64,000 nt of DNA from Candidatus Parepulonipiscium sp. PG-Nuni2H_MBin01 (GCA_001994995.1 MDJM01000084.1:171-64170), one strand, 5' to 3'. Numbered from the stretch's first letter, positions 14,082 through 31,848 are shown. Notes: generated by a model not told the origin, from the letters alone. Numbers and translations are program-made.

Positions 14082-15032
14082 TTGGAGCATAAAGGAGTTA
14101 TACTTAATATTCAGCATTTCACTATTCATGATGGTCCAGGTATTCGTACCGAATTATTTTTAAAAGGCTGCCCTATGCGGTGTAAATGGTGTAGCAACCC
14201 GGAGAGTTGGTTACACCATATAGAGCCTGGTGTTTATAGGTCAAAATGTATATTAGAAACTAAATGCGGTTCTTGTAAAGATATATGTCCTGATAAAGAT
14301 ATATTAAAATTTCATGATGGTAAAATAAGCTCTATAGATAGAACAAAATGTACTAATTGTCTTTTATGCAGCATGGAATGTCCTTCGGAAGCTATTAAAC
14401 AATGGGGCAAACAAATGTCAGTTGAACAGTGTATGAAAGAAATTTTAAAAGATAAAGGATATTACGACCGCTCTGGTGGAGGGGTTACAGTATCAGGTGG
14501 AGAGCCTCTTATGCAAAGTGAATTTGTATTAGAGCTTTTTAAGGCATGTAAAAAAGTTGGAATTCATACTTGCTGTGAGTCTAGCTTTTGTACTAACTGG
14601 GAAGCTATTGAAAAAATTTTACCTTATACTGACCTTATAATTTCGGACATTAAGCATATGGACACTAATGTGCATAAAGAATATACAGGAATTGATAACA
14701 AGAAAATTTTAGAAAACTTAAGTAAGTTATGTACTACTAATGTAGATTTAATTTTACGTATCCCTGTAATTCCTATGGTAAATGATACCCACGAAAATAT
14801 GGCGGCTACAGCAGATTATATTATAGATGAATTACATGGTAGGGTTAGAACACTACAGCTGTTGAGCTTTATGAGGCTAGGCGAGGAAAAATACCATTCG
14901 TTAGGATTACCATATCAAATGGAAAATACTAAAATAAATAGGACATCATTTCAGAAACGAATTAATGAATTTGCTGATTATTTTAATGGCCGGGGGATTA
15001 ACTGTTTAGTAGGTACGAAGGAAAAGGATTAG
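14082..15032 (+). CDS. Glycyl-radical enzyme activating enzyme (radical SAM, with two extra ferredoxin-type clusters)
   Basis: GPGIRTELFLKGCPMRCKWCSNPES (CX3CX2C). Also CILETKCGSCKDICP and CTNCLLCSMECP. TTG start after AAGGAGG. Confidence 0.9.
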   Translation: MEHKGVILNIQHFTIHDGPGIRTELFLKGCPMRCKWCSNPESWLHHIEPGVYRSKCILETKCGSCKDICPDKDILKFHDGKISSIDRTKCTNCLLCSMECPSEAIKQWGKQMSVEQCMKEILKDKGYYDRSGGGVTVSGGEPLMQSEFVLELFKACKKVGIHTCCESSFCTNWEAIEKILPYTDLIISDIKHMDTNVHKEYTGIDNKKILENLSKLCTTNVDLILRIPVIPMVNDTHENMAATADYIIDELHGRVRTLQLLSFMRLGEEKYHSLGLPYQMENTKINRTSFQKRINEFADYFNGRGINCLVGTKEKD

Positions 15033-15059
15033 ATTAATTTTTGCAAGGGAGGATTTTAA

Positions 15060-17549
15060 ATGAATAGTGATATAAAATGTGCAAGCGGAACACAACCTTT
15101 TGACCAAACCTATAGTTTAGGATACCAAGTAAATCATGAAGATTGGTCACCATTTCCACGTGTAAACCGCCTTAGGCAAGCTTTTTTAGATAGGCCATAT
15201 GAAGTAGATGTAGAAAGATTAAGGTTAGTTACAAATTCATATAAGAAACACGAGGATTTACCTCGTAAGTTACAGTGTGCATATGCATTTGAAAATGTTT
15301 TATTAAATGCAACTTTATATATTTACGACGAAGATTTAATTTTAGGCGAAATTGCAGCGCCAGCTAAAGCATCACCTATATATCCTGAGTTTTCAGTAAA
15401 ATGGATTATAGATGAAATACTGCACCACCCATTTGAAGAGCGTGCAAACGACCAGTTCTATATTCGTAGTGATGAAGATAGAAAAGAAATCGTAGAGCTT
15501 TGTAGGTATTGGGAAGGAAAGACTGTTGATGACCTTATTAGCGCTAGGTTAGAAGAGTCGCAAACGGTTGGCTCTCAGGTTGGAGATAAAGTGTTCCAAA
15601 CTAACGTTTATCAATATGCAGGAGTAGGCCATCTCGCTATGGATTATTTTATGCTAATGGACATTGGTTTTGATGGTATGATTGATAAAGCAAAAGTGGC
15701 GCAAAGTAAGCTATCTAAAAAAGACCCAGAATATGCAGAAAAAAGAGATTTTTATAAAGCAATGCTTATTATGTTAGAAGCATCTAAAAAGTATATAGAA
15801 CGTTATGGCAAGCTAGCAGCTGATATGGCACAGACAGAGCTTGCGCCTAAAAGAAAAGAAGAGCTGTTAGCAATGTCAGCTAACTGTTATGAGATTGCAG
15901 GTCCAGCGCCTAAAACTTTTTGGCAAGGTATACAATTGTTTAACTTTGCAACTACACTTACCCAGATAGAAAGTAATGGTCACTCAATTTCCTATGGGCG
16001 TATGGACCAATGGCTATACAGTCTTTATGAAGCGGACATTAAACAAAATACTTTAACAAAGGAATTTGCTCTTGAACTTCTTGAGGTGCAGTTTGTTAAA
16101 ATGAATAACCCTACTAAATTAAAAGATAAAGGGACTGTACTAGTGCGCAATGGTAGAGGTTTTGGTGGCGAAAGTCTTACTATTGGTGGGGTGGATAGCG
16201 AAGGGAATGATGTTACTAACGATTTAACAATGCTAATCTTAGAAGGTTCTGCGCATACTCGTATGATGAACCCTTGGGTATGTGTTCGTATGCATGAGAA
16301 TACACCTTATGAGTTAAAAGTTAAAGCAGTTGAGTGTATTCGTGCTGGATATGGGCATCCAAAATTATTTAATGATGAACCAGCTATTAAAGCTATGATG
16401 AGAAAAGGAATGCCTATTTGTGAAGCTAGAGATTATATTGTAGTAGGCTGTGTAGAACCAAGTTTAGCGGGTAAAGAATTTGGTTGGCATGATGCGGCAT
16501 ATGTTAATACTGCAAAAATGTTAGAAATGGTAGTAAACGGCGGTATGTGTTTAGATGGTGGGGTGTTTGGTAAGCAAATAGGGCCTAATACTGGTACTTT
16601 AGAAACTTACAAAAGTTTTGATGAGGTATTAGAGAGTGTAGATAAACAGTTTGATTATTGGTGTGACCAAATGTGCAGTAGCTTAAATATAATTGAGGAT
16701 GCACATAAACTGCGTAAACCAACCCCATATGTATCAGCATTTTTTCCTCATTGTATTGAAACTGGTAAAGATTTATCCGAGGGCGGTGCTAAGTATAATG
16801 GAACGGGGCCACAAGCTAGTGGGATAGCTACATGTGCAGATAGTTTAGCGACTATTAAGCAATTAGTATTTGATGAGAAACGTTATACAGGTGCTCAACT
16901 GCTTCAAGCTATTAAAGATAACTGGGAAGGACATGAGAAATTATATGCTTTAGTAAATAGCTCAAAAATCCATCACTATGGAAACGATGATGATTATGCA
17001 GATGAATTATTTAAATTTATGTTTGAGTGTTATTGTAAAAACATAAATTATCGCAAAAATTTAAGAGGCGGTAACTTTAGCCCCGGTGTATATTCGGTTA
17101 ATGCTAATGTAGGAATGGGCTTATTTACTAATGCCTCTTTAGATGGGCGTTTTAAAGCTGAAGCTATTTCAGATAATATGGGACCTGTACATACTGATGG
17201 CGGTTCCCATGATATTTGTGGCCCTACAGCCTTAGCTAATTCAGTAAGTAAGGTTGACCACAGTTTAGCAACTAACGGAACCTTATTAAATATGAGATTT
17301 CCGCAAGAAGCAGTTGCTGGTACAGAAGGTAGAGATAACTTAATAAGTTTTATTGATGAATATATGTCAAAAGCACCTATGCACGTTCAGTTTAACATAA
17401 TGAACGTAGCTACTATGAAAGCGGCACAGAAAAATCCAGAAAATTATAAAGATATGTTGGTTAGAGTAGCTGGGTACAGCGCATACTTTGTGGAGCTTGG
17501 TAAGCCTTTACAAAAAGACCTAATACAACGTACAGAGCTTAATTTTTAA
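15060..17549 (+). CDS. Glycyl-radical enzyme, PFL2 / diol-dehydratase-like clade. The substrate is unresolved: DHPS or glycerol dehydratase are the candidates.
   Basis: 829 aa. C-terminal Gly-radical motif MLVRVAGYSAYF and Cys loop VVGCVEPS. GVGHLAMDY, NGHSISYGR and FGWHDAAY resemble my recollection of dehydratase-type GRE active-site motifs. Confidence 0.88.
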   Translation: MNSDIKCASGTQPFDQTYSLGYQVNHEDWSPFPRVNRLRQAFLDRPYEVDVERLRLVTNSYKKHEDLPRKLQCAYAFENVLLNATLYIYDEDLILGEIAAPAKASPIYPEFSVKWIIDEILHHPFEERANDQFYIRSDEDRKEIVELCRYWEGKTVDDLISARLEESQTVGSQVGDKVFQTNVYQYAGVGHLAMDYFMLMDIGFDGMIDKAKVAQSKLSKKDPEYAEKRDFYKAMLIMLEASKKYIERYGKLAADMAQTELAPKRKEELLAMSANCYEIAGPAPKTFWQGIQLFNFATTLTQIESNGHSISYGRMDQWLYSLYEADIKQNTLTKEFALELLEVQFVKMNNPTKLKDKGTVLVRNGRGFGGESLTIGGVDSEGNDVTNDLTMLILEGSAHTRMMNPWVCVRMHENTPYELKVKAVECIRAGYGHPKLFNDEPAIKAMMRKGMPICEARDYIVVGCVEPSLAGKEFGWHDAAYVNTAKMLEMVVNGGMCLDGGVFGKQIGPNTGTLETYKSFDEVLESVDKQFDYWCDQMCSSLNIIEDAHKLRKPTPYVSAFFPHCIETGKDLSEGGAKYNGTGPQASGIATCADSLATIKQLVFDEKRYTGAQLLQAIKDNWEGHEKLYALVNSSKIHHYGNDDDYADELFKFMFECYCKNINYRKNLRGGNFSPGVYSVNANVGMGLFTNASLDGRFKAEAISDNMGPVHTDGGSHDICGPTALANSVSKVDHSLATNGTLLNMRFPQEAVAGTEGRDNLISFIDEYMSKAPMHVQFNIMNVATMKAAQKNPENYKDMLVRVAGYSAYFVELGKPLQKDLIQRTELNF

Positions 17550-17559
17550 TAACTTTTAC

Positions 17560-17720
17560 TCTCCTCATAAGCGGTTATGCCTAAGAGGGGAGCCTTAGAT
17601 TTATATGGGGTACAGGGGCAATGCCCCTGACTGTGTCCCTTCAAAAACATCGGCCGCCTTAGTATTTATTGCTATAAAAGGTTGATTGAAAAGTTTTCAT
17701 TTGTTAAGTTAACAAGACCA
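17560..17720 (+). repeat. Intergenic repeat family, copy A (full length)
   Basis: Hairpin CAGGGGCAATGCCCCTG (17613-17629). The core CTTAGTATTTAT...AAAAGGTTGATTGAAAAGTTTTCATTTGTTAAGTTAACAAGACC ends about 25 nt before the RBS of the Fe-ADH gene. It is near-identical to the cores at 45928-45987 and 62124-62178. Confidence 0.75.
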
Positions 17721-17745
17721 GACTTTATTATAGGAGGAATATATA

Positions 17746-18888
17746 ATGAAAGATTTTAGATTTAAAATACCACAAAATATTGAATTTGGCTTAGGAAGTT
17801 TAAATAAACTACCACAATTATTAGAACAAAATAATTCACAACATGTACTGCTTATATCGGATAAAGGGTTAGAAAGTATTGGGATAGTTAAAAAAGTACA
17901 AGATATAATAAGCGCTAGTAATATTCAATGCACCACATTTTTGGACATAGACCCAAATCCAACTATTGAAATGGTCGACGCGGCAGCAAGTTTATATAAA
18001 GAATGCGGTGCTACAAGTATAGTTGCTCTTGGAGGCGGAAGCCCTATCGACGTTGCAAAAGCAGTGGGAGTACTTGTTGTTTATGGAGGTAAAATTACAG
18101 ATTATGAGGGTATGCACAAAGTGCCTGGACCAATTGTACCTATGATAGTAATTCCAACTACAGCTGGGACAGGTAGTGAAGCTACAGCTTCAGCAGTAAT
18201 AACAGATGTAACAAGAAATTATAAGATGACTGTATTTACTTATGAAATTTTACCTAAATACGCAATACTAGACCCAGAGCTTATTATGACTGCACCAGCA
18301 TCAATTGCGGCGGCGTGTGGTGTAGATGCATTTATTCATGCGATGGAAGCTTATTTATCTCGAAATGCATCCCCATTTTCAGATGCTATGGCTGAAAAAG
18401 GGATGGAATTAATCGGCAAAAGTTTAAGGCAGTTTGTGGCTGATAGAACAAACGTTGAAGCGGCGTGTAATATGATGGCAGGTTCTAATTTTGCCGGAAT
18501 TTCATTTGCTTGGGCAAGGCTTGGAAATATACATGCTATGAGTCATCCTGTAAGCGCTTATTTCCATGTGCCACATGGTATTGCTAATGCTATACTTATG
18601 CCTACAATAGTTGAGTACAACGCACTGGCTGATGATGGTAGATATGAGAAAATTTATAACTATATAAGTAAAGAGTCTGTTAGCAATTTTAAACCACAAA
18701 TGCTAGTAGAGGCGTTAAGACAGCTAAATGAAGAACTTGGTATTCCTAATTCATTATCAGCAGTAGGCGTAACCGAGGATTTAATCGAAACAATGGCCAA
18801 TGATGCTATGGCTAGCGGAAATATCCTTGCTAATCCAAGACAGGGTAATGTTAAAAATCTTATAGAGCTTTACAAAAAAGCCTTATAA
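17746..18888 (+). CDS. Iron-containing (group III) alcohol dehydrogenase, DhaT/FucO-like aldehyde reductase
   Basis: GGGSPIDVAKA and the His-rich metal site HAMSHPVSAYFHVPHG. 380 aa. RBS AGGAGG. Confidence 0.9.
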   Translation: MKDFRFKIPQNIEFGLGSLNKLPQLLEQNNSQHVLLISDKGLESIGIVKKVQDIISASNIQCTTFLDIDPNPTIEMVDAAASLYKECGATSIVALGGGSPIDVAKAVGVLVVYGGKITDYEGMHKVPGPIVPMIVIPTTAGTGSEATASAVITDVTRNYKMTVFTYEILPKYAILDPELIMTAPASIAAACGVDAFIHAMEAYLSRNASPFSDAMAEKGMELIGKSLRQFVADRTNVEAACNMMAGSNFAGISFAWARLGNIHAMSHPVSAYFHVPHGIANAILMPTIVEYNALADDGRYEKIYNYISKESVSNFKPQMLVEALRQLNEELGIPNSLSAVGVTEDLIETMANDAMASGNILANPRQGNVKNLIELYKKAL

Positions 18889-19060
18889 GTAGTAAAATAC
18901 TACAAAATAATAGTAGTATATATCTATAATTTGTAGAATTTTATCTGTAAATTGTTTTAAAAATTATAATATAATTAAATTATACTAGCTGATATGTCAT
19001 TTATACATGAAATTATAGTTAATTATTAGGATGAATTTACTTTAAAATTTACAATCAGTG

Positions 19061-19085
19061 TAGGAATATTTAACGTTAATTCCTA
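19061..19085. promoter_or_regulatory. Inverted repeat TAGGAAT-N11-ATTCCTA centred on AACGTT, a candidate operator
   Basis: Read directly. It sits about 50 bp upstream of the predicted -35 of the transporter/sulfo-TAL operon promoter. Confidence 0.3.
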
Positions 19086-19133
19086 TAAAAAAACACTAAT
19101 ATTACTAAAATTTAGAAAATCTTACTAAAACAC

Positions 19134-19162
19134 TTGCATATTTCAACTATAGGATATATAAT
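19134..19162 (+). promoter_or_regulatory. Sigma-A-like promoter: TTGCAT, 17-nt spacer, TATAAT
   Basis: TTGCAT at 19134-19139 and TATAAT at 19157-19162 with an exact 17-nt spacer, inside a 408-nt AT-rich gap ahead of tctC. Confidence 0.5.
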
Positions 19163-19308
19163 AATATTAGATTTGTTGCTCAAATTTACTAATTAATATC
19201 TACTATATATTAAATAATACAACAAATTTTACAATTAAAATATCTTGCCCCACAAAAATATAAGGGGGAGATAGAGTTGCCATATTTGGCTAAGAAATGG
19301 AGGAATTT

Positions 19309-20375: not shown

Positions 20376-20837
20376 GTGAAGATTAAAACTAATTTATGGA
20401 CGGGAATTATAATGGGTTTGTTTAGTTTATTGCTTCTTATAATGTTACCTGAGCAAGTTAAACTACCAGCTTATGATTCGGGGGCGCCAAGTCCTAGAAT
20501 ATTACCATCGTTTGCACTAATTGGAATGCTTATATCATCAGTCATATTAATTTTTCAAAGTCTAGTATTAAAGAAAGAAAAAATATATGAATTTGATATG
20601 AAATATGAGCTACCTGCAATAATTGTAATTGCAATGTTATGTGTTTTTACAGCACTGATTATTAATGTAGGATATGTAGCGGCAGCATTTATAGTATTCC
20701 CTATAATGCTATTTTACGCCGGAGAGAGAAAACCGTTTGCTTACATTTTAACACTTGTAGCAGCAATTGCTATATTTTATATGTTTAGAAGCGTACTAAA
20801 TATTTCTTTACCTGCATTTCCAGGGTTTGGAGGTTAG
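20376..20837 (+). CDS. tctB: TTT small membrane subunit, TctB family
   Basis: 153 aa, 4 TM, positioned between the TctC and TctA homologues. GTG start after AAAGGAGGGG. Confidence 0.7.
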   Translation: MKIKTNLWTGIIMGLFSLLLLIMLPEQVKLPAYDSGAPSPRILPSFALIGMLISSVILIFQSLVLKKEKIYEFDMKYELPAIIVIAMLCVFTALIINVGYVAAAFIVFPIMLFYAGERKPFAYILTLVAAIAIFYMFRSVLNISLPAFPGFGG

Positions 20838-20840
20838 AAT

Positions 20841-22430
20841 ATGGGCGATTTCGATATAATTTTACAGGCGTTAGGTCAGGTTCTTTCATTTACAAATATA
20901 GCAGTTATACTAGGTGGACTTTTGTTAGGAATAATAGTAGGATGCATTCCGGGGTTAAGCGTAACCCTAGGGATAATCTTACTATTACCACTAACATATG
21001 GATTTTCTTCACCAGATACTGCAATAATTTCTTTACTTGCTGTATATATAGGAGGAATGTACGGAGGGTCAATTAGTGCTATACTGCTTAACTCACCCGG
21101 TACTAACTCTGCAATAGCAACAACATTTGATGGATATCCGCTTGCACAGCAAGGTAAAGTAAAAAAGGTGCTTGATATTTCACTATTTGCATCTGTATTT
21201 GGTGGAATGTTTTCAGCTATATTACTTTTATTATTTTCATCATTAATTACTAAATTAGTTTCAAGCTTTGCCTCAACTGAGTATTTTGCACTTGCGATTT
21301 TAGGTATTTCCTTATTAGCAGGAGTAAGCGGAGATAGTTTACCAAAAGGTATTATTTCTGGGCTACTAGGTATATTCATTGCTTGTATAGGAGCGGATGC
21401 AGTAACAGGAGTTTTAAGATTTACATTTGATTCTAGAACTTTAAGATATGGCATTGATATGTTGCCAGCAATGATAGCATTTATAGCACTAACTCAAGTT
21501 GTACTTAAATTAAGAGACTTTATTGTACACAAGGGCGAAATTCAAGACATTACAAAGATAGATAATGAAGGTTTAACTGCTACAGAAGCAAAATCAATAG
21601 TTCCAGCATGTTTACGTTCGTCAACAATAGCATCCATTATAGGAGCTATGCCTGGAGTTGGTGGTGGTGTTGCACAATTTATGTGCTATAACGAAGCGCG
21701 TCGTGCATCAAAACGTCCACAAGATTTTGGTAAAGGTAGCTATGAAGGGGTTGCAGCAGCAGAATCTAGTAACAATGCAGTTGTAGGTTCAGCTATGATA
21801 CCACTTTTAACATTAGGAATACCAGGTGATGGTGTTACGGCATTACTTTTAGGAGCATTTATCTTACACGGAATACAGCCAGGGCCAACAATGTTTACTA
21901 AACAAGGGGTAGTTGCATATAGCATTATACTCGGCACACTGATTGCAAACGTAGCACTTATTGCTGTAGGTCTGATATTTACCAGAGCTGTAGCAAAAAT
22001 TGTTCAAGTTAAATATACCTACTTAGCTCCAATTATAATTTTATTCTGCTTTGCTGGTGCGTTTGCGGCAACAGGAAATACTAAAGAGTTAATTATTACA
22101 GCAGGTCTTTTAGTAGTAAGTTATTTATTTGTAATACTAGATTTCTCAGTTGTTCCGCTTATGTTAGGTATGATATTAGCTGACATAATGGAAATGAACT
22201 TTGTAACTAGTATGATGAGTTATGATAATGATATATTCATATTCTTCAAAAGACCAATTACTGCATGCATACTAGTTCTGACAGTTATTTTACTAATATC
22301 ATTAATGAAGCTTAATAAGAGAATTAACGCGTTAAATGATGCTCAAGTAGCTGAAATGGCTCAGCGAGATTTAGAAGAGGCTGTAGAAGTAGAAGAAGCT
22401 ATCGAGGATGGTAAATTTGAAGCACCTTGA
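20841..22430 (+). CDS. tctA: TTT large permease subunit, TctA family
   Basis: 529 aa polytopic protein with GIIVGCIPGLS and PGDGVTALLLGA segments typical of TctA. Confidence 0.88.
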   Translation: MGDFDIILQALGQVLSFTNIAVILGGLLLGIIVGCIPGLSVTLGIILLLPLTYGFSSPDTAIISLLAVYIGGMYGGSISAILLNSPGTNSAIATTFDGYPLAQQGKVKKVLDISLFASVFGGMFSAILLLLFSSLITKLVSSFASTEYFALAILGISLLAGVSGDSLPKGIISGLLGIFIACIGADAVTGVLRFTFDSRTLRYGIDMLPAMIAFIALTQVVLKLRDFIVHKGEIQDITKIDNEGLTATEAKSIVPACLRSSTIASIIGAMPGVGGGVAQFMCYNEARRASKRPQDFGKGSYEGVAAAESSNNAVVGSAMIPLLTLGIPGDGVTALLLGAFILHGIQPGPTMFTKQGVVAYSIILGTLIANVALIAVGLIFTRAVAKIVQVKYTYLAPIIILFCFAGAFAATGNTKELIITAGLLVVSYLFVILDFSVVPLMLGMILADIMEMNFVTSMMSYDNDIFIFFKRPITACILVLTVILLISLMKLNKRINALNDAQVAEMAQRDLEEAVEVEEAIEDGKFEAP

Positions 22431-22530
22431 TAAATTCAAAGTGCCACCGCTCTACTTAGTGGTGGTGCTCTATACATAGGTTGTATAATATGCAGCCTTA
22501 ATAATTCAACCATAGAAAGGAAGTAACTTA

Positions 22531-23274: not shown

Positions 23275-24132
23275 ATGAAAATAGGATTTATTGGACTTGG
23301 TATTATGGGTGAGTCTATGAGTGAAAATATAGTAACTAAACACAATGATGAGGTTTACGTATTTGATTTTGCAAAAGACAAAGTAGACCTTTTAGCATCT
23401 AAAGGAGCAATCGCTTGTACTTCATCAGGGGAGCTTGCGCAAAAAAGTGATGTAATAATATCAATGGTGCCAAAGTCTGAGCATGTAAAGGCAGTATATG
23501 AAGGCATTTTAGATAAATTAGATAATACAAAAATTTGTATTGACATGAGTACTATTGACCCTAGTGTATCTAGAGAAGTGGCGAGCAAAGTTAAGGAAAC
23601 AGGCGCGCAATTTATTGATGCACCAGTTGTAAAATCCAAACCAGCTGCAATTTCTGGAACACTTGGCATTTATGTTGGCGGTGATGAAAGTGTATATGAA
23701 AAAATGAAACCTATCCTTTTGTATATGGGAAATAACGTTATTCGCATGGGGGATAATGGTGCAGGGCTAGTTATGAAAATTTGTCATAATGCATTAGTGT
23801 CTCAAATCCAAAATGGCGTAAATGAAACTATAAGTTTAGCTGTTGCAAATGGAATTAGCATTGAGGAATATACTAAAGCTATATCTTATGGCGGAGGACA
23901 GAACTTCTATCTAGATGGGAAGTCAAAGCCAATTTCAGAAAACAACTTTACTACAGCGTTCTCAGTTGAAAATATGGCAAAAGACGTGGACATTTGCATT
24001 AGTTTAGCAAAAGAGTGCGGTATTAGCATGCCAGGGGAAGAAGTTGTTCAGAATGTATATAATAAATCTCTTGAAAATGGATATGGCTCTCTTGATTTCT
24101 GCGCTACAATAAAAACTGTGCGAGGAGAGTAG
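23275..24132 (+). CDS. NAD(P)-dependent beta-hydroxyacid dehydrogenase family reductase (YihU/GarR-like), a candidate sulfolactaldehyde reductase
   Basis: MKIGFIGLGIMGESM Rossmann motif, DMSTI, and GTLGIYVGG. 285 aa. Confidence 0.8.
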   Translation: MKIGFIGLGIMGESMSENIVTKHNDEVYVFDFAKDKVDLLASKGAIACTSSGELAQKSDVIISMVPKSEHVKAVYEGILDKLDNTKICIDMSTIDPSVSREVASKVKETGAQFIDAPVVKSKPAAISGTLGIYVGGDESVYEKMKPILLYMGNNVIRMGDNGAGLVMKICHNALVSQIQNGVNETISLAVANGISIEEYTKAISYGGGQNFYLDGKSKPISENNFTTAFSVENMAKDVDICISLAKECGISMPGEEVVQNVYNKSLENGYGSLDFCATIKTVRGE

Positions 24133-24135: not shown

Positions 24136-24798
24136 ATGATAGAACATTTAAATACAATAAATAATGTGGAAATAAAAAGTGTTTTTGATAAGAGCTTTAA
24201 AACTTATGGCAAAGTGATAGAAGGATATGATTTTACAGAAATAGTGGAATATATGAAAACAACGCCTATGCCAGAAGCTAATAATATTTATATAGCATCT
24301 TGTGAAGATATGGAAAATATGGAAGTGGCACATAAAGTGCAACAAGGGTTATATGGAGGCTTGGAAATACAGGTTGGTTACTGTAACGGAAGAAATAGCA
24401 CTTATAATGGATTAGAGTATCACAAATGTAGTGAGCTTAATGTAGCTGTTACTGATATGATGATGGTATTAGGGCATGTTTGGGATATGGAAAATAATAC
24501 TTTTAATGTAGATGATGTGGAAGTATTTTTTGTTCCTCAAGGTACTGTATTAGAAATGTACCAAACAACACTTCACCTATCACCTTGCAAAGTAACAGAT
24601 GAAGGATTTAGAGCTGTAGTTATTTTGCTTAAAGGCACAAATGATACTACGTTTGAGAAACCAGAACATATCACAAAAGAAGATGAAATTTTATTATTTA
24701 AAAACAAATGGATAATTGCTCATCCACAAAGAGAACCTTTGGTAAAAGCAGGCGCTTACACCGGGCTAATCGGAGAGAATAAACAATTAAAATATTAA
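24136..24798 (+). CDS. DUF4867-like cupin protein, a candidate sulfoquinovose isomerase
   Basis: 220 aa with GYCNGRNSTYNGLEYHKCSELNVAVTD. As I recall, this family is the isomerase of sulfo-TAL clusters. The assignment is from memory and context. Confidence 0.6.
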   Translation: MIEHLNTINNVEIKSVFDKSFKTYGKVIEGYDFTEIVEYMKTTPMPEANNIYIASCEDMENMEVAHKVQQGLYGGLEIQVGYCNGRNSTYNGLEYHKCSELNVAVTDMMMVLGHVWDMENNTFNVDDVEVFFVPQGTVLEMYQTTLHLSPCKVTDEGFRAVVILLKGTNDTTFEKPEHITKEDEILLFKNKWIIAHPQREPLVKAGAYTGLIGENKQLKY

Positions 24799-24820
24799 AT
24801 CCTAGAAAGGCGGCTAGTTG

Positions 24821-26830
24821 ATGGAGTTACAAATAAATAACAATGAATTTAAGTTAGAACATAATGGCCATGTTATCTTAAGTCACTCGGCTTCTCAACC
24901 TTTACTTTATGTTGGAGTGGGGGATGAAGATGTAGAGATGTATCGAGGGAATTTTAAAATTGAAGACTATTTAATTGAGCGAATAAAACTAGATGTGTTA
25001 TCAATCCAAGAAACAGATGGTGCTACTGCTATTAACTTTGGTGATAAAGTTATAGCTACGATTAAAATAGTTTCGGATAAATGTGATATTAGTTTTGAGC
25101 ACAAGGATTCAGATTTAAATAGATTTTTTATTAGGCTAAACTCAAGTGAAAACGAAAAATGTTTTGGACTTGGAGAACAAATGTCTTATTTAAACGTTAA
25201 AGGCAGAAACTTTCCTATATTCACCTCAGAGCCTGGTGTAGGGCGAGATAAATCTACCTACATGACATGGAAATGCGATGTGGACTCAAAATCTGGAGGA
25301 GACTACTACAATTCAAACTTCCCACAGCCCACATTTATATCTTCAAACATGTATTTCCTTCATTTAAACTCCACTGCCTATGCAGACTTTAACTTTAAAA
25401 ACGATAATTTTACCGAAGTAGAGGTTTGGGAAATCCCAGAAAGTATAGTTATAGAAGGTGGCAAAGATTATTTCGAGCTACTAGAAAAATTAACTGCTTT
25501 ATTAGGACGACAACCAGAGTTGCCAGATTGGGTTTACAATGGACTAATTGTAGGACTGCAAGGTGGTAATGAAAGAACGTTTGGTTTATTAGATAAAACG
25601 CTTGATAAAGGAATTAAAGTTGCTGCAGTGTGGGCACAGGATTGGTGTGGAAAACGATTTACTTCTTTTGGAAAAAGACTCCAATGGGATTGGCATTTCC
25701 ACAATGAAATGTACCCTAATTTACCTGAAAAAATCGCACAACTACATGAAAGAGGCATTAAGTTTATGGGGTATGTAAATCCATATCTTGTAGATGATGG
25801 TGATTTATATAAAGAAGGTAAACAGAAAGGTTTCTTTGCAACTAAACATGATGGCACTGATTACCTTGTGGATTTTGGTGAATTTAACTGCGGAGTTGTA
25901 GATTTAACAAATCCACAAGCTTATGAATGGTTTAAAAACGATGTTATAAAGAAACATTCAATTGACATAGGTATGGATGGCTGGATGGCTGATTTTGGTG
26001 AGTATCTCCCAACTGATGACATTAAACTTTACAGCGGTAAAAGTGCTATGATAGAACACAATCACTGGCCAGTTTTATGGGCTAAATGTAATTATGATGC
26101 TGTTAATGAGTCTGGCAAATTAGGTGAAATAGTTTACTTTATGCGTGCTGGCGGTGCTGGAAGTCAAAAGTATTGCACATTACTTTGGGCAGGAGACCAA
26201 TCAGTTGATTTTACGTTGCATGACGGCCTTGCTTCAACTATTTGTGGAGCATTATCAGCTGGTATGACTGGTGTTGGATTATCTCATAGTGATATAGGGG
26301 GTTATACATCTCTTTATGAGAATGTTCGTGATAAAGAGCTATTTCTACGTTGGGCTGAAATGTCGGCGTTTACTCCAGTTATGAGGACTCATGAAGGTAA
26401 TAGACCAGATACAAACTTCCAATACTATGACGATGATGATTGTATGACTCAATTAGCGCGATTAGTTGATGTATACACAATGCTAAAAGAATATATTAAA
26501 GAATTAGTGGCACATAATAGTCAAAAGGGTATTCCTGTACAAAGACCATTATTCCTGCATTATCCAACAGATGAAAAAACTTACGAAATCCAATATCAGT
26601 ATTTATTCGGTAGTGATATACTTGTTGCGCCTGTGCATGAGGAAGCGAAAACACAGTGGGAAGTATATTTGCCAGATGATGAATGGATACACTTATGGAC
26701 TGGTAAAGAATTTGGGCAAGGAACTTATGTTATAGATGCTCCAATGGGATACCCACCAGTATTTTATAGGAAGACTTCTGCTTATGCAGCTACATTTGCA
26801 GAAGTGACTAATAAATACGGAAGTAAATAG
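24821..26830 (+). CDS. yihQ: GH31 sulfoquinovosidase (YihQ/SftG-like)
   Basis: Long stretches match E. coli YihQ as I recall it: LLEKLTALLGRQPELPDW, AQDWCGKRFTSFGKRLQWDW (Arg/Trp of the sulfonate pocket), GWMADFGEYLP (nucleophile), WAGDQSVDF (acid/base) and HSDIGGYTS (Tyr). Confidence 0.88.
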   Translation: MELQINNNEFKLEHNGHVILSHSASQPLLYVGVGDEDVEMYRGNFKIEDYLIERIKLDVLSIQETDGATAINFGDKVIATIKIVSDKCDISFEHKDSDLNRFFIRLNSSENEKCFGLGEQMSYLNVKGRNFPIFTSEPGVGRDKSTYMTWKCDVDSKSGGDYYNSNFPQPTFISSNMYFLHLNSTAYADFNFKNDNFTEVEVWEIPESIVIEGGKDYFELLEKLTALLGRQPELPDWVYNGLIVGLQGGNERTFGLLDKTLDKGIKVAAVWAQDWCGKRFTSFGKRLQWDWHFHNEMYPNLPEKIAQLHERGIKFMGYVNPYLVDDGDLYKEGKQKGFFATKHDGTDYLVDFGEFNCGVVDLTNPQAYEWFKNDVIKKHSIDIGMDGWMADFGEYLPTDDIKLYSGKSAMIEHNHWPVLWAKCNYDAVNESGKLGEIVYFMRAGGAGSQKYCTLLWAGDQSVDFTLHDGLASTICGALSAGMTGVGLSHSDIGGYTSLYENVRDKELFLRWAEMSAFTPVMRTHEGNRPDTNFQYYDDDDCMTQLARLVDVYTMLKEYIKELVAHNSQKGIPVQRPLFLHYPTDEKTYEIQYQYLFGSDILVAPVHEEAKTQWEVYLPDDEWIHLWTGKEFGQGTYVIDAPMGYPPVFYRKTSAYAATFAEVTNKYGSK

Positions 26831-27550
26831 ATGAATATAATTTTATTTTTTATAGTTATCTTTTTAAGTAACATAATACAAGGCATTACAGGCTTTGCGG
26901 GAACAATTCTCGCAATGCCATTTGCTATAATGTTAGTAGGCTATAATGTAGGTAAGCCTGTATTAAATCTACTAGGTTTATTTGCTGGCCTATATGTACT
27001 TAAAAGTAACTATAAATCTGTTAACGTAAAAGAACTTATTAAAATCGTTGTGGTGATGTCGCTTGGTATATTTGGTGGGATTTATCTTAAAGCGTTGTTA
27101 GTGGATCACCAACAAGTTCTTTATATAGCGCTAGGCCTTTTTATAATATATATATCAGTCAAAGGCTTATTCTTTAAATCTAAGGAGCGTAAAACGTTAA
27201 ACCCTGTAATGACCAATGCTATGTTAATAGTAGCAGGTATAATACATGGTATATTTGTATCCGGGGGACCGCTTGTAATTAGTTATCTAACAACAAAGAT
27301 AAATGATAAAACTGCATTTAGAGCTACAATATCTACAGTGTGGGTATTTTTGAATACAATTCTTTTTGTAGATGACATCATAAGTGGCTATTGGACCCAA
27401 GAATTAGTTATTCTGCAAATAATAGGTATGCCAATACTATTTTTAGGAATGCATATAGGGTCTATATTGTATAAAAAAATGAATCAAGAAACGTTTATGA
27501 AGCTGTCGTATATATTATTATTTATTGCGGCACTTACATTAATTTTCTAA
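26831..27550 (+). CDS. TauE/SafE (TSUP, DUF81) family sulfite/organosulfonate exporter
   Basis: 239 aa, about 8 TM. N-terminus reads NIIQGITGFAGTILAMPF. The ATG abuts the yihQ stop codon. Confidence 0.8.
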   Translation: MNIILFFIVIFLSNIIQGITGFAGTILAMPFAIMLVGYNVGKPVLNLLGLFAGLYVLKSNYKSVNVKELIKIVVVMSLGIFGGIYLKALLVDHQQVLYIALGLFIIYISVKGLFFKSKERKTLNPVMTNAMLIVAGIIHGIFVSGGPLVISYLTTKINDKTAFRATISTVWVFLNTILFVDDIISGYWTQELVILQIIGMPILFLGMHIGSILYKKMNQETFMKLSYILLFIAALTLIF

Positions 27551-27570
27551 ATTAAGATTGGAGATAAATT

Positions 27571-28908
27571 ATGAAACAATTTCAAGTAGCGTACATTCCT
27601 ATTGGAGTACCAACTTTTCATTTAGAAAGTGCACAAATTGAGTTCGATAAATCTATATCTATGATAAAAGGGTTAACTGATAATGGGGTATTTCCAGACG
27701 AAATGCTTTTATCAATGGATAAATTAGATAACTTTTTAAACTCTATAGAGCCAAATTTAGTTATAGTTCAAAATATTACATTTGCAAACTCAGCTTATAT
27801 AACAGAGGTACTAAAGAAATTTGATTGCCCAGTACTGCTGTGGACATTAAGAGAGCCGATTATAGATGGAGGTAGGCTAAGGTTAAATTCTTTAACAGGA
27901 GCATATTCTGCTGGAAATACACTTATGCATTTTAGAAATGCAAACTTTGAGTATGTATTTGGTTCTCCTGATGAAGAAGATGTAACTTCTCATATTAAAG
28001 CTACTATTGAAGCGGCTAGAGTAAAACATGTGATGAGAGGGATAAAAGTTGCAGCTATAGGCCACACTCCACAAGGGTTTGGATTTGGTAGAGCTTTAGA
28101 TATTGAGATGGCTCAAGTTTTTGGAGCAACTCTAGAGTCTTTAGAAGCGAGGGAGTTAATCGAAAAGGCTAAAGCGTATGAAACGGATGTTACAGACGAG
28201 TTGTTAGAACAGTATGGTAAAGTTGCTTGTAACCATGATGTTATAGATGAGAAAAACATGGTTGACTTTGCTAGATTATTAAAAGCGTATAAAGATTTTG
28301 TAGATGCAAATAATATTAAAGTTATTGCATCTAGATGTTGGCCTGACTTCTTCGTATCATATGGTACTCCTGTTTGTGGCGTACTATCATTACTAAACGA
28401 TTGGGGTGTATCTGCTAGTTGTGAAGCTGATACCTACGGCGCATTATCTATGTATATAGCATCACAATTTACACATAAGGCATCTTTCTTTGGTGACCCA
28501 GTGTCTTTAGATGAAGAAGAGAATACTATTACTTATTGGCACTGTGGTATGGCCGCATGTTCTCTTTCTAGAGATGAAAAGGCAAATACGGGTGTGCATC
28601 CAAATAGAAAAATAGGCCCAGTAATGGACTTTGGTTGTAAAGCGGATGAGCAAGCGACTGTCTTTAGAATTGGTAAAGATGCAGATGGTAAATTTAGATT
28701 TTTCATTATGGAAGGTAGTATTTTAGATAAACCAAAACAGTTCCAAGGCACATCTATTGTTGTTAAACCAAACGGAAACTGTAAAGACATTATAACTAAG
28801 AGTGTAAAATCAGGTTTTGAGCCACACTTTGTTGTAGCATATGGCCACATTGCCAAAGAGCTTGAAATTCTTGCTAATATGTTAGACTTAGAAGTTGTAA
28901 AATACTAA
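27571..28908 (+). CDS. L-fucose/L-arabinose isomerase-family protein; substrate unknown
   Basis: 445 aa with AAIGHTPQGFGFG and CEADTYGALSM motifs typical of FucI/AraA-like sugar isomerases. RBS GGAGA. Confidence 0.65.
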   Translation: MKQFQVAYIPIGVPTFHLESAQIEFDKSISMIKGLTDNGVFPDEMLLSMDKLDNFLNSIEPNLVIVQNITFANSAYITEVLKKFDCPVLLWTLREPIIDGGRLRLNSLTGAYSAGNTLMHFRNANFEYVFGSPDEEDVTSHIKATIEAARVKHVMRGIKVAAIGHTPQGFGFGRALDIEMAQVFGATLESLEARELIEKAKAYETDVTDELLEQYGKVACNHDVIDEKNMVDFARLLKAYKDFVDANNIKVIASRCWPDFFVSYGTPVCGVLSLLNDWGVSASCEADTYGALSMYIASQFTHKASFFGDPVSLDEEENTITYWHCGMAACSLSRDEKANTGVHPNRKIGPVMDFGCKADEQATVFRIGKDADGKFRFFIMEGSILDKPKQFQGTSIVVKPNGNCKDIITKSVKSGFEPHFVVAYGHIAKELEILANMLDLEVVKY

Positions 28909-28966
28909 AACTTTGGAATTATCTATTAAAAAATTAAATTATTTATTAAAAAGGAGAATATGAAAG

Positions 28967-30091
28967 ATGAGAAAAGCGTTTATTTGCCCAACTAAATATG
29001 TTCAGGGAGAAGATGAGTTACTGAATTTAGGATATTTTGTTAAAACTTTCGGAACATCAGCACTATTAATAGCACATAAAGATGACGTTAACAGAGTAAA
29101 AGAAAAATTAGACTCAACAGCACAAAAATTTCAAATTACTTTTGCAGAATCAAACTTTGGTGGAGAATGTTCTAGAAATGAAATCGCAAGATTACAGCAA
29201 GTAGCAAAAGATAATAGTTGCGATTGTATCATCGGATTAGGCGGTGGTAAAGCAATAGATACAGCAAAATGTGTTGCTGAAGGTGGTAACTTAATTATTG
29301 TGCCAACAATTGCTGCAACAGATGCTCCAACTAGCCATTCAGCTGTACTATACACAGATGATGGAGCGTTTGATGACTACGCATATTTTAGACAAAGCCC
29401 TAGTGTAGTTTTAATTGATACAACAGTAATTGCAAATGCACCAACTAGATTTTTAGTATCTGGAATGGGTGATGCTTTATCAACTTATTTTGAAGCTCGT
29501 GCATCTAGAAATTCTTTTGCTAGAGTTAATGCATCATTACCTTGTGGAGCACTAACAGGCGAATGTCCACCGGCTGTAGGAACAAATACTGCGTTTGCAT
29601 TAGCGAAACTATGCTATGAAACTCTTTTAGCAGAAGGAGTAAAAGCTAAAATTGCTAATGAGTGTAAACAAGTAACACAATCTTTGGAAAACATAATAGA
29701 GGCAAATAGCTTACTTTCAGGGCTTGGATTTGAAAGCGGTGGTCTTGCAGGAGCACATGCAATTCATGACGGCTTAACTATAATTGAAGAAACTCATAAA
29801 TTTTTCCATGGCGAAAAAGTAGCTTTCGGAACAATCTGTCAGTTAGTTCTTGAAAATTCACCTACAGCAGAGCTAGAAGAAGTAATTAATTTCTGCATTA
29901 GCGTTGGGTTACCAGTTTGTCTTGAAGACTTAGGGATTAAAGAACTTTCTAATGAGCAACTTATGGCAGTAGCTGAAAAAGCATGTATTCCAGAAGAGAG
30001 TATCCATGCTATGCCATTTAAAGTTACACCAGCAGATGTTGCAGCGGCTATTATTACAGCGGATAGAATTGGTAGTTTAATGAAAAATTAG
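28967..30091 (+). CDS. gldA: Glycerol dehydrogenase
   Basis: GLGGGKAIDTAK, GMGDALSTYFEA and AGAHAIHDGLT motifs of GldA-type group III dehydrogenases. Confidence 0.85.
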   Translation: MRKAFICPTKYVQGEDELLNLGYFVKTFGTSALLIAHKDDVNRVKEKLDSTAQKFQITFAESNFGGECSRNEIARLQQVAKDNSCDCIIGLGGGKAIDTAKCVAEGGNLIIVPTIAATDAPTSHSAVLYTDDGAFDDYAYFRQSPSVVLIDTTVIANAPTRFLVSGMGDALSTYFEARASRNSFARVNASLPCGALTGECPPAVGTNTAFALAKLCYETLLAEGVKAKIANECKQVTQSLENIIEANSLLSGLGFESGGLAGAHAIHDGLTIIEETHKFFHGEKVAFGTICQLVLENSPTAELEEVINFCISVGLPVCLEDLGIKELSNEQLMAVAEKACIPEESIHAMPFKVTPADVAAAIITADRIGSLMKN

Positions 30092-30102
30092 TGGAGGCTA
30101 GC

Positions 30103-31848
30103 ATGAAAAAAATAATAAATCAACCAGAAACTATGATAGTTGAAATGTGCAACGGTTTAGTGATGGCACACCCAGAGCTTGAGTTTTTACCTAAATTTAA
30201 AGTGATAAAAAAATCTAATATTAACAAAGATAAAGTTTCATTAATAAGCGGTGGAGGTAGCGGACATGAACCGGCACATGCAGGATTTGTAGGCGAAGGT
30301 ATGCTTGATGCTGCAGTATGTGGAGATGTATTTGCATCGCCATCTCAAATTCAAGTTTATGAAGCAATTAAGGCAGCGGCAACAGATAAAGGGGTTTTAT
30401 TAATCATCAAAAACTATAGTGGTGATATAATGAACTTTAAAAATGCCGCTCACCTAGCTACTGAAGATGGCATAAATGTGGAATATATTAAAGTTGAAGA
30501 TGATATCGCTGTTATGGATAGCTTGTATACAGTAGGTAGACGTGGTGTTGCTGGTACAATTTACGTGCATAAAATTGCGGGTGCAGCAGCACAAAAGGGC
30601 TGGGAGTTGCAAAAAGTAAAAGAAATTGCACAAGATACAGCGGATAACGTAAGAAGTATGGGCTTTGCATTCACTTCATGTACCGTGCCAGCAAAAGGAA
30701 CTCCAACATTTGAGCTAGCAGATGATGAGATGGAATTTGGTGTGGGTATACATGGCGAACCTGGAATTGAGCGTCAGAAAGTAGTTGGTGCGGATGAGCT
30801 GGCTATAAAATTAGTGGAGCCAATTGTTAAAGACTTAGACTTAATTAACAACAAGCAAGAAATTGCGTTACTAATTAATGGCTTTGGTGCTACTCCACTG
30901 CAAGAGCTATATGTGCTTAACAATGCTGTTAGAAAATATTTATCACAATATAATATAGTACCAGTGGTTACACACGTAGGGAACTATATGACTAGCATTG
31001 ATATGGCAGGGGCTTCTATTTCTATATTAAGATTATGCGATACTAAAAAAGAACTGCTGTTAGCGCCATCAGATACACCTGGGTTTAAGGTGGGAGCGTA
31101 CGTTCCTCCTATCGCTTACCAAGAAGTAATTCAGCCAGAAACTAAGGAGCATGCTAACTATACAGTAGAGACTGACGCAAGCTATGCGGTTATAAAAGAT
31201 AATATCACTTTAAATAACTTAGTATATATAATTGATAAAATGGCTGAAGTAATCATTGCCAATGAAGTTCCATTCTGCGACTTGGATTCGCACGCTGGAG
31301 ACGGCGACTTTGGTATGAGCGTAGCAAAAGGGTTTAGACAACTAAAAGCTGAGTGGAACGAAGTTTTAGACACTACAATTGGTGGGTTTTTAAACAACTG
31401 CGCTATGATTATTATGGAACATTGCGGTGGAGCATCGGGACCAATTTGGGGTTCTGCATTTAGAGCTGCATCTAGATATGCACAAGATAAAACAACGTTA
31501 ACAGCTGCAGAGTTTGCACAATTGCTACAAGCTACTGTGGAAGGCATTCAAGCTACAGGAGAGCGCAGCTTTGGTAGGGGCGCTGGTGTAGGCGATAAAA
31601 CTTTAATGGATGCACTTATCCCAACAGCGAACGTTTGGCAAGAAAAAGCTAGCACTACTAGTTTTAAAGAACTATTCGAGTTAGGTGCACAAGCTGCTGT
31701 GGACGGAGCTAAGAAAACCGAAGAGATTGTTGCTAGAATGGGTAGAGCAGGCACAGTTGGAGAAAGAAGTATTGGTTATCCAGATGCAGGAGCACATGCA
31801 CTTGGAGTAATTTTTACAGAAATAACAAACAACTTAAAATTTGAATAA
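30103..31848 (+). CDS. ATP-dependent dihydroxyacetone kinase, fused DhaK-DhaL domains
   Basis: SGGGSGHEPAHAGFVG (DhaK) and DSHAGDGDFG (DhaL). The ATG at 30103 follows GTGGAGG. Confidence 0.9.
   Translation: MKKIINQPETMIVEMCNGLVMAHPELEFLPKFKVIKKSNINKDKVSLISGGGSGHEPAHAGFVGEGMLDAAVCGDVFASPSQIQVYEAIKAAATDKGVLLIIKNYSGDIMNFKNAAHLATEDGINVEYIKVEDDIAVMDSLYTVGRRGVAGTIYVHKIAGAAAQKGWELQKVKEIAQDTADNVRSMGFAFTSCTVPAKGTPTFELADDEMEFGVGIHGEPGIERQKVVGADELAIKLVEPIVKDLDLINNKQEIALLINGFGATPLQELYVLNNAVRKYLSQYNIVPVVTHVGNYMTSIDMAGASISILRLCDTKKELLLAPSDTPGFKVGAYVPPIAYQEVIQPETKEHANYTVETDASYAVIKDNITLNNLVYIIDKMAEVIIANEVPFCDLDSHAGDGDFGMSVAKGFRQLKAEWNEVLDTTIGGFLNNCAMIIMEHCGGASGPIWGSAFRAASRYAQDKTTLTAAEFAQLLQATVEGIQATGERSFGRGAGVGDKTLMDALIPTANVWQEKASTTSFKELFELGAQAAVDGAKKTEEIVARMGRAGTVGERSIGYPDAGAHALGVIFTEITNNLKFE

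Follow-up and report, generated by a model that had tools for sequence, protein, structure and literature searches.

The 64,000-nucleotide stretch of DNA analysed here (the window) belongs to Candidatus Parepulonipiscium sp. PG-Nuni2H_MBin01 (GCA_001994995.1, MDJM01000084.1:171-64170), and between positions 14082 and 31848 it carries a block of genes that points to the breakdown of the sulfosugar sulfoquinovose (SQ). Open reading frame (ORF) calls together with Pfam and NCBIfam scans give 14 ORFs in this block, all on the + strand. An earlier reading of the same DNA by a model, the original prediction, had the genes at the right coordinates and on the right strand throughout; it counted 15 of them, and the large gaps at 17550-17745 and 18889-19308 hold no credible ORF. 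In order, the predicted products are the activase HpfH, the glycyl-radical enzyme (GRE) HpfG, an HpfD-type Fe-dependent alcohol dehydrogenase (Fe-ADH), the components TctC, TctB and TctA of a tripartite tricarboxylate transporter (TTT), a sulfofructose (SF) transaldolase, a sulfolactaldehyde (SLA) reductase, a DUF4867 protein, a YihQ-type sulfoquinovosidase, a TauE exporter, the SQ isomerase SqvD/SftI, the glycerol dehydrogenase GldA and a fused DhaK-DhaL kinase. The profile searches that the original prediction had proposed as a check place HpfH, HpfG, YihQ, GldA and DhaKL above the cut-offs of their models. Its identification of the pathway genes stood, except that the SQ isomerase gene (27571-28908) had been left unnamed. 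A single neighbourhood thus holds a sulfoglycolysis core that yields 2,3-dihydroxypropanesulfonate (DHPS) together with HpfG, HpfH and HpfD, the combination that defines HpfG-dependent extended sulfoglycolysis.

The hpfH gene (14082-15032) ends 27 nt upstream of hpfG (15060-17549). HpfH, the radical-SAM activase of the DHPS dehydratase, carries the Pfam domains Radical_SAM and Fer4 and scores 559.8 bits on NF048008 (cut-off 500), and HpfG scores 1672.6 bits on NF048009 (cut-off 1000), the NCBIfam equivalog model for "(2S)-3-sulfopropanediol dehydratase"; the models for other GREs (HpsG 472, CutC 508, HypD 540 bits) all remain below their own cut-offs on this protein. HpfG is 75-87% identical to annotated DHPS dehydratases of Epulopiscium, Klebsiella, Citrobacter, Hungatella and Enterococcus, the closest matches being Epulopiscium sp. 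Nele67-Bin005 (87%) and Ca. Epulonipiscium viviparus (85%). It has the glycyl radical motif RVxG, and its residues G805, C464, E466 and H191 align with G763, C433, E435 and H164 of the glycerol dehydratase of Clostridium butyricum (1R8W); among 14 HpfG homologues these four catalytic residues do not vary. A look-up of the exact sequence of the window HpfG gave no record.

The original prediction had allowed that this GRE might instead dehydrate glycerol to 1,3-propanediol. The block would then be a dha-type glycerol fermentation unit, in which the GRE acts as a B12-independent glycerol dehydratase and the Fe-ADH as a 1,3-propanediol dehydrogenase, with GldA and DhaK working on glycerol derived from SQ-glycerol. 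The nearest structures lean in this direction, since the C. butyricum glycerol dehydratase is the closest solved structure to HpfG and 1,3-propanediol oxidoreductases are the closest to the Fe-ADH (231-235 bits); moreover, GldA and DhaK form the oxidative arm of classical dha regulons. Nevertheless, the match to glycerol dehydratase reaches 613 bits, and the generic PFL2/glycerol dehydratase model gives 683 bits where the HpfG model gives 1672. The orthologues of characterised HpfG in Klebsiella, Hungatella and Enterococcus, 75-78% identical to the window protein, have the same LuxR regulator and Fe-ADH as partners and no glycerol genes, and among metagenomic DhaKL loci, none of the closest 80 has HpfG within 10 kb. 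Given the 75-87% identity to DHPS dehydratases and the passing of the HpfG equivalog cut-off, the glycerol dehydratase assignment, and with it a dha-type unit, is very improbable; by sequence, the GRE is HpfG, a DHPS dehydratase. The dhaB1/dhaB2/dhaT system of C. butyricum resembles the window in that a GRE acting as 1,2-diol dehydratase, together with its activase, has an Fe-ADH as partner and NADH sink, and it shares the catalytic Gly, Cys, Glu and His; its GRE acts on glycerol, not on DHPS, whereas the window GRE falls in the HpfG equivalog family, outside the glycerol dehydratase clade.

The Fe-ADH gene (17746-18888; Pfam Fe-ADH and ADH_Fe_C) encodes a candidate 3-sulfopropionaldehyde reductase. 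There is no curated HpfD model. In a comparative survey, 80 HpfG loci at species level were collected together with their 10-kb flanks and scored with all window proteins (labels of the form L001 refer to our surveys). HpfH was present in 74 of these loci and an HpfD-type ADH in 51, where the HpfG-adjacent Fe-ADH is 65-85% identical to that of the window. The HpfG-adjacent enzyme of Hungatella hathewayi DSM 13479, presumably the characterised HhHpfD, is 76% identical. Between hpfG and hpfD lies a structured spacer of 196 nt (17550-17745, + strand) with two GC-rich hairpins and no T-tail (minimum free energy -58.8 kcal/mol, z -3.3). It occurs once in the window and is missing from E. viviparus, whose hpfG-hpfD gap measures 18 nt; it may be an element of RNA processing, stability or partial attenuation.

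Upstream of hpfH, as the original prediction had it, is the gene of a LuxR/GerE-type regulator of 369 aa (12614-13723, + strand) with a C-terminal helix-turn-helix (Pfam GerE 9.2e-13, residues 310-362) and an N-terminal domain of about 300 aa that gave no Pfam or NCBIfam match. In 46 of the 80 HpfG loci the gene directly upstream of hpfH encodes a homologue of it, 43-55% identical (for example H. hathewayi, L026 7694-8779); these loci span Bacillota, Fusobacteriota and Enterobacteriaceae (L006-L076). Since most of the loci that have this regulator contain no SQ genes, it belongs to the Hpf module. It probably responds to DHPS, which makes the protein a candidate sensor for this compound from a ligand-binding family that is so far undescribed. 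The regulator gene is preceded by an unrelated gene for a GFO/IDH/MocA oxidoreductase (11605-12600), which has no counterpart in any related locus surveyed. This product was considered as an NAD-dependent sulfoquinovosidase of the SqgA type (GH188) and rejected, the match to PDB 8QC2, which we take to be SqgA, being 34 bits and covering the Rossmann domain only.

The sulfoglycolytic transaldolase (sulfo-TAL) enzymes begin with a 226-aa protein of the TAL/FSA family (22531-23211), assigned as SqvA/SftT, the transaldolase of 6-deoxy-6-sulfofructose. It gives 302 bits to the SF transaldolase of Bacillus megaterium (8BC3), 168 to the best ordinary transaldolase, Tal of Thermotoga maritima, and 89 to fructose-6-phosphate aldolase (FSA). 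The Schiff-base Lys, in VIKIP, corresponds to K89 of the B. megaterium enzyme, and the Glu of ISVEIN and the Phe of VSPFIGW correspond to E60 and F132 of Thermoplasma acidophilum Tal, positions where FSA has Gln and Tyr. Because Glu and Phe replace these FSA residues, the C3 unit is expected to pass to an acceptor and no free dihydroxyacetone to be released. The opposite has some appeal: the protein is of the size of FSA/TalC members and shares a block with a dihydroxyacetone kinase and GldA, which resembles the fsaB-gldA arrangement of E. coli, so that an SF aldolase could deliver free dihydroxyacetone to DhaKL by a new, phosphorylation-free aldolase route. With Phe at the place of the catalytic Tyr of FSA, Glu at that of its Gln, and scores of 302 bits for the solved SF transaldolase and 89 for FSA, we rejected such an aldolase as extremely improbable.

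The transaldolase gene is followed by that of a candidate SLA reductase (SftR, "YihU") of the beta-hydroxyacid dehydrogenase family (23275-24132; Pfam NAD_binding_2/11). A protein 66-76% identical occupies the same position in every related sulfo-TAL operon, and the function was assigned on this invariant place after the transaldolase gene, that of SftR in the literature. The next gene (24136-24798) encodes a DUF4867 protein (Pfam DUF4867 1e-76). The original prediction had taken it for SftI/SqvD, the SQ isomerase; its literature name is SqvB/SftX, and it has been proposed to be an SQ mutarotase or ring-opening enzyme (PMC9594981). The isomerase is more plausibly the 445-aa product of 27571-28908, for which SqvD/SftI (NF048012) is the sole family match. 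It is 58-74% identical to the gene product at the same place in related operons, and since none of the related sulfo-TAL operons lacks an orthologue, we take it most likely for a diverged representative of the SftI/SqvD family.

The glycoside hydrolase of the block, a GH31 protein (24821-26830, with an alternative start at 24818), is a YihQ/SftG-type sulfoquinovosidase. Against E. coli YihQ it reaches 798 bits, against the sulfoquinovosidase of Agrobacterium tumefaciens 747 and against the alpha-xylosidase YicI 147; its score on NF007746 is 982 bits (cut-off 553). The five motifs quoted in the original prediction (LLEKLTALLGRQPELPDW, AQDWCGKRFTSFGKRLQWDW, GWMADFGEYLP, WAGDQSVDF and HSDIGGY) are all found in the translation. 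Aligned to E. coli YihQ (PDB 5AED), R301 and W304 fall in FGKRLQWDW, D405 in GWMADFGEY, D472 in WAGDQSVD and Y508 in HSDIGGY; the numbering was confirmed by PDB 5AEE, the D472N variant. Both catalytic Asp residues, the nucleophile D405 and the acid/base D472, are kept, and so are R301, W304 and Y508, which we take to be the sulfonate-recognition triad; these residue roles reportedly go back to the work of Speciale et al. in 2016. The enzyme therefore lies in the YihQ clade, and not in an alpha-glucosidase/xylosidase clade devoid of the triad; the hydrolysis of SQ-glycerol is predicted for it. No signal peptide was found in the protein, so it should be cytoplasmic, and SQ-glycerol would have to enter the cell intact for glycerol to be released inside.

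Such entry could be provided by the TTT system. The ORF of its substrate-binding protein (19297/19309-20334, + strand) most likely starts at 19309, where the sequence opens with the lipoprotein signal MKKFISILLLGAMSLSLAAC (lipobox LSLAAC). This TctC-like lipoprotein, the candidate SQ-glycerol/SQ receptor, matches Pfam TctC weakly (18.3 bits, E 0.0018, cut-off 27) and TTT binding proteins of the PDB at 6e-10 (5OEI) to 1e-4, and a protein from the metagenome-assembled genome (MAG) Epulopiscium sp. Nele67-Bin001 matches it with 100% identity. By this match and by the best HpfG matches, the window derives from an Epulopiscium-type symbiont. The small and large membrane subunits both exceed their cut-offs (TctB, 20376-20837, 50.3 bits, 3.7e-13; TctA, 20841-22430, 440.7 bits, 5.8e-132). 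The tctC-like gene adjoins tctBA here and in four sulfo-TAL loci that have no HpfG (Clostridium transplantifaecale, Oribacterium sp. WCC10, a Treponema MAG and a Lachnospiraceae MAG; L085-L088), which share the array SqvA-YihU-SqvB-YihQ-TauE-TctC-TctB-TctA-SqvD-ROK; the window differs from it in having GldA-DhaKL where the array has the ROK gene. Relatives of TctCBA with 55-75% identity occur in many sulfo-TAL operons of Lachnospiraceae, Oscillospiraceae, Oribacterium and Treponema.

TTT systems for small sulfonates such as sulfolactate are known (SlcHFG), and in the window the transporter genes directly follow hpfD, so that the system could also be thought to serve the Hpf module, importing DHPS or some other sulfonate and not a sulfosugar. 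We hold this to be quite improbable, given that binding proteins 55-65% identical to that of the window lie between TauE and SqvD in the HpfG-less sulfo-TAL operons, where DHPS is the excreted end product, and that TctCBA was found in none of the 70 HpfG loci without SQ genes within 10 kb. Its presence inside sulfo-TAL operons without HpfG and its absence from DHPS-only HpfG loci assign the TTT transporter to the sulfosugar module, and TctCBA is, as judged from its sequence and gene context, most likely the importer of SQ-glycerol or SQ. The uptake of SQ is described in the literature as the task of "SftA, predicted SQ importer" (PMC7491151) or of unspecified transport systems, and no paper on a TTT system as sulfosugar importer was found in the searchable literature library; if the assignment holds, the TTT family would gain its first sulfosugar substrate. 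A wider proposition is that TctCBA of the window and its relatives form a dedicated SQ-glycerol/SQ importer whose divergent TctC proteins are a sulfosugar-specific receptor clade, and that the LuxR-type protein, with an N-terminal domain matching no known family, is a DHPS-sensing regulator; taken together, we give these claims an even chance.

The TauE/SafE-family exporter (26831-27550; Pfam TauE; SftE type), presumed to export 3-hydroxypropanesulfonate (3-HPS) and DHPS, is 51-63% identical to the YihQ-adjacent TauE of other sulfo-TAL loci and about 30% identical to the HpfE-type TauE of DHPS-only loci. By these identities it is of the sulfo-TAL type and not of the HpfE type.

The block ends with a glycerol module, formed by GldA (28967-30091; NF006941 519.8 bits, cut-off 336) and a fused, single-chain DhaK-DhaL dihydroxyacetone kinase of the ATP-dependent type (30091-31848; NF011049 717.7 bits, cut-off 492; Pfam Dak1 and Dak2). 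Most of the 80 closest DhaKL loci mentioned above hold GldA-DhaKL without any SQ gene, and some SQ clusters that contain GldA-DhaKL have no HpfG. Since the pair mostly occurs without SQ genes and never near HpfG in those loci, it is a generic glycerol module that was recruited to SQ clusters several times. A specific coupling of GldA-DhaKL with HpfGD, for the redox balancing of glycerol, was considered and set aside, as nothing beyond co-occurrence in a few loci spoke for it. Two non-homologous kinds of glycerol genes flank SQ clusters, GldA/DhaKL (the window, L038-L040 and L062) and GlpK/GlpD (E. viviparus and the Treponema MAG); in the Treponema sulfo-TAL locus, glpK/glpABC-type genes lie on either side. 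In seven human gut metagenome contigs (L097, L099-L101, L104, L105 and L108), GldA-DhaKL (75% and 67% identity) adjoin distant relatives of YihQ (49-52%), DUF4867 (40%) and SqvD (43-53%), and the SF transaldolase gave no match in these contigs; they look like a different type of SQ pathway, by gene content, that recruited the glycerol module too.

The transcription signals of the region were sought as consensus matches only. Behind the regulator gene lies a hairpin with a T-run that resembles a terminator (13725-13742, + strand), and a promoter-like site, TTTAAA-17-TATAAT with TG before the -10, lies upstream of hpfH (13989-14017, + strand). Within the block, an AT-rich gap of 420 nt with promoter-like sites precedes tctC (18889-19308, + strand) and may hold an internal promoter for tctCBA, and the 100-nt gap before sqvA (22431-22530) contains a perfect TATAAT. 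No terminator-like site was predicted inside the block; its end is marked by a strong GC-rich hairpin of 10 pairs between dhaKL and a convergent gene (31852-31878). The gaps gave no Rfam match at gathering thresholds and no tRNA in the search for riboswitches and known RNAs. The block could form one operon or up to four transcription units.

Comparable arrangements were sought in the neighbourhood survey that the original prediction had suggested. SQ genes stand beside HpfG in ten of the 80 HpfG loci and are absent within 10 kb from the remaining 70. The ten belong to Ca. Epulonipiscioides saccharophilum, Brotaphodocola, a Faecalibacterium MAG, an Oscillospiraceae MAG, Mediterraneibacter, a Lachnospiraceae MAG, Faecalicatena faecalis and three Vibrio or related loci, so that the linkage of Hpf and SQ genes recurs in at least ten species of Bacillota and Vibrionaceae with shuffled gene order: LuxR-HpfHGD-SqvA-YihU-SqvB-YihQ-TauE-TctCBA in Brotaphodocola, YihQ-TauE-GldA-DhaKL-SqvD-HpfHGD in F. 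faecalis, and YihQ-DhaKL-GldA ... HpfG-HpfH in the three Vibrio or related loci. The loci of F. faecalis, Mediterraneibacter and Lachnospiraceae (L038-L040) carry the same three modules as the window on one strand, with HpfH, HpfG and HpfD in succession; they differ in that GldA-DhaKL precede SqvD, which they follow in the window, and in that no TctCBA was found in their 10-kb flanks. In Ca. Epulonipiscium viviparus (CP117982.1, 2.51-2.53 Mb; L001) the same set of SqvA, YihU, SqvB, YihQ, TauE, HpfH, HpfG, HpfD, SqvD and TctCBA is present with 62-88% identity. There, in contrast, the SQ genes lead and the Hpf genes are embedded among them, the glycerol branch consists of adjoining glpK/glpP/glpD genes in place of GldA/DhaKL, and a ROK regulator is present while no LuxR-type regulator was found in the 10-kb flanks; the window shows the reverse, a LuxR-type regulator and no ROK. 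In Epulopiscium sp. Nele67-Bin005 (L004/L005), the source of the closest HpfG, a DHPS-only locus is arranged as HpfG-TauE-HpfH-Na/sulfate-type symporter-HpfD, with a GDPD phosphodiesterase behind it; whether Hpf and SQ genes are fused thus varies among related Epulopiscium lineages.

Among the systems described in the literature, the extended sulfo-TAL cluster of Enterococcus gilvus (SqvU, YihQ, SqvD, SqvA and YihU with HpfGHDE and HpfXYZ; PMC11489063) is like the window in joining a sulfoquinovosidase, an SF transaldolase, an SQ isomerase and an SLA reductase to HpfG, HpfH and HpfD. E. gilvus ferments SQ past DHPS to 3-HPS in one organism, as is predicted for the source of the window. The window has a TTT system where E. 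gilvus has the sugar transporter SqvU, it has only a TauE of the sulfo-TAL type where E. gilvus has HpfE, and it adds GldA and DhaKL. A bifurcation through HpfX and HpfYZ as in E. gilvus was dismissed: no aldehyde dehydrogenase or succinyl-CoA-ligase homologue turned up in Pfam scans of the window ORFs of at least 250 aa, seven shorter ones (150-224 aa) being left out, and the ATP-yielding 3-sulfopropionate branch thus appears to be lacking. The HpfGHD clusters of Klebsiella oxytoca and H. hathewayi share with the window the core of LuxR-type regulator, HpfH, HpfG, a TauE-like exporter and HpfD (75-78% identity for HpfG, 70-76% for HpfD); these clusters (Liu et al. 2020, PNAS, as cited in PMC11489063 and PMC12890257) act on imported DHPS and have no sulfoglycolysis genes in their neighbourhood.

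From the family assignments, to which the profile searches and residue comparisons led, we infer the substrates, flux and regulation of the following route. Sulfoquinovosyl-glycerol, or SQ, would be bound by the TctC-like lipoprotein and imported through TctBA, and the cytoplasmic GH31 sulfoquinovosidase would split SQ-glycerol into SQ and glycerol. SQ would be converted to sulfofructose by the DUF4867 protein SqvB together with SqvD, and the SF transaldolase would transfer a C3 ketol unit onto glyceraldehyde-3-phosphate (GAP), yielding fructose-6-phosphate and freeing sulfolactaldehyde, which the beta-hydroxyacid dehydrogenase would reduce to (S)-DHPS at the expense of one NADH. HpfG, activated by HpfH, would then dehydrate DHPS to 3-sulfopropionaldehyde; the Fe-ADH HpfD would use a second NADH to reduce the latter to 3-HPS, and the sulfonate would leave the cell via TauE. 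The released glycerol would become dihydroxyacetone phosphate (DHAP) through GldA and DhaK-DhaL, from which triose-phosphate isomerase would supply the GAP acceptor of the transaldolase. This is the logic that the original prediction had preferred, from sulfoquinovosidase through sulfo-TAL and DHPS to HpfG/HpfD and 3-HPS, with glycerol going via dihydroxyacetone to DHAP, and the family models, the residue checks and the comparative context agree with it.

The block could also be read as three unchained modules lying side by side, each with promoters and inducers of its own: Hpf would scavenge external DHPS, sulfo-TAL would act on SQ, and GldA/DhaKL would take up the use of free glycerol. The large gaps with promoter-like sites and the perfect TATAAT before sqvA would suit such independence, as would the 70 of 80 HpfG loci devoid of SQ genes within 10 kb, the four HpfG-less TTT sulfo-TAL operons examined, all of them stand-alone units, and the distance of most close GldA-DhaKL pairs from any SQ gene. 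In addition, Enterocloster clostridioformis YL32, whose genome holds the two pathways without linkage, went no further than DHPS in culture and left this SQ-derived DHPS unconverted to 3-HPS (PMC12330013). On the other hand, all 14 genes are co-directional with no internal terminator-like site predicted, the linkage persists across Bacillota and Vibrionaceae despite the shuffled order, DHPS made by the SQ module in the same cell would be an obvious substrate for HpfG, and E. gilvus does turn SQ into 3-HPS (PMC11489063). We consider unchained modules unlikely, and favour, with a probability of about 0.8, an HpfGHD-extended sulfo-TAL sulfoglycolysis locus with a glycerol branch, as its genes suggest, in an Epulopiscium-type gut symbiont of the Lachnospiraceae. 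Besides the behaviour of strain YL32, several points weigh against this choice: the source symbiont is uncultured; the Hpf, SQ and glycerol modules stand apart in most genomes; the gaps of 196, 420 and 100 nt with their promoter-like sites indicate that the block is maybe not one operon; and the TTT system and TauE have presumed substrates. Furthermore, the SLA reductase candidate reaches 162 bits with PRK15461, the model for E. coli YihU (cut-off 348), less than with generic beta-hydroxyacid dehydrogenase models, E. coli YihU is not among its top PDB matches, and SqvD, although matched end to end (5-445 of 445), reaches 387 bits on the Bacillus equivalog model NF048012, whose cut-off is 700, so that both assignments lean on conserved gene context.

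Extended sulfoglycolysis has a recent literature. Wei, Tong and Zhang (2022, PMC9594981) described "extended sulfoglycolytic pathways" with HpfG and HpfD in the clusters of Vibrio scophthalmi (sulfo-EMP, the Embden-Meyerhof-Parnas form of sulfoglycolysis) and E. gilvus (sulfo-TAL), and Chen et al. (2024, PMC11489063) showed that E. gilvus, with sulfo-TAL and HpfGHD, makes 3-HPS and 3-sulfopropionate when grown on SQ, and mentioned by name that marine Vibrio and Epulopiscium sp. carry such pathways. In 2025, MAGs of Enterocloster were reported to have both pathways (Microbiome, PMC12330013). As to glycerol, Frommeyer et al. (2020, PMC7491151) proposed that the glycerol derived from SQ-glycerol supplies the GAP acceptor pool via co-encoded glycerol genes, and Borusak et al. 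(2024, PMC11659671) found a glycerol dehydrogenase and a dihydroxyacetone kinase induced by SQ in the SQ cluster of Faecalicatena sp. DSM22707. The premise on which the original prediction based its novelty, that in described systems the GRE resides in a different organism, is therefore outdated by the papers of 2022 and 2024. The layout is already published, Epulopiscium included, and the locus is a further case whose value is confirmatory and comparative. What the survey adds is the placing of the LuxR-type regulator with the Hpf module and of the TTT transporter with the sulfosugar module, and the repeated recruitment of two non-homologous types of glycerol module to SQ clusters.

Whether a fermenter ends at DHPS or at 3-HPS decides which sulfonate reaches the sulfite-respiring bacteria of the gut. 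Epulopiscium-type bacteria are symbionts of algae-eating surgeonfish, and a full locus from SQ-glycerol to 3-HPS and DHAP in such a symbiont fits the diet of the host, rich in algal sulfoquinovosyl diacylglycerol (SQDG). The locus should let this Epulopiscium relative ferment the plant and algal sulfosugar sulfoquinovosyl-glycerol to 3-HPS, and it suggests 3-HPS as a sulfur end product in the surgeonfish gut; Bilophila respires 3-sulfopropionate and not 3-HPS (PMC11489063).

Outside the block, the ORFs at 7790-8743, 10163-11470 and 31884-32564 had no family match in the scans. The first 2 kb of the window have an odd composition (GC 0.417, AT skew 0.31), due to a 420-aa ORF at 160-1422 (+ strand) that consists mostly of a tandem repeat rich in Q, P and V (QQAPVQQPV...) followed by a short non-repetitive C-terminal domain. 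Riboflavin biosynthesis genes, with RibD and RibBA recognised by Pfam, occupy 53897-57544; their upstream spacer is about 115 nt long, and no FMN riboswitch was matched there at Rfam gathering thresholds. The stretch 46047-51397 (- strand) encodes, in tandem, two paralogues with a transglutaminase core, each of about 510 aa; a CAP/Cu_amine_oxidN1 protein comes next. The region that adjoins the locus downstream, 32871-35384, carries a NiaR-like regulator (HTH_11 and 3H), a PnuC transporter and NadR, a set for nicotinamide riboside salvage, with perfect matches to sigma-70-type promoters at 32781-32810 and 32871-32899.

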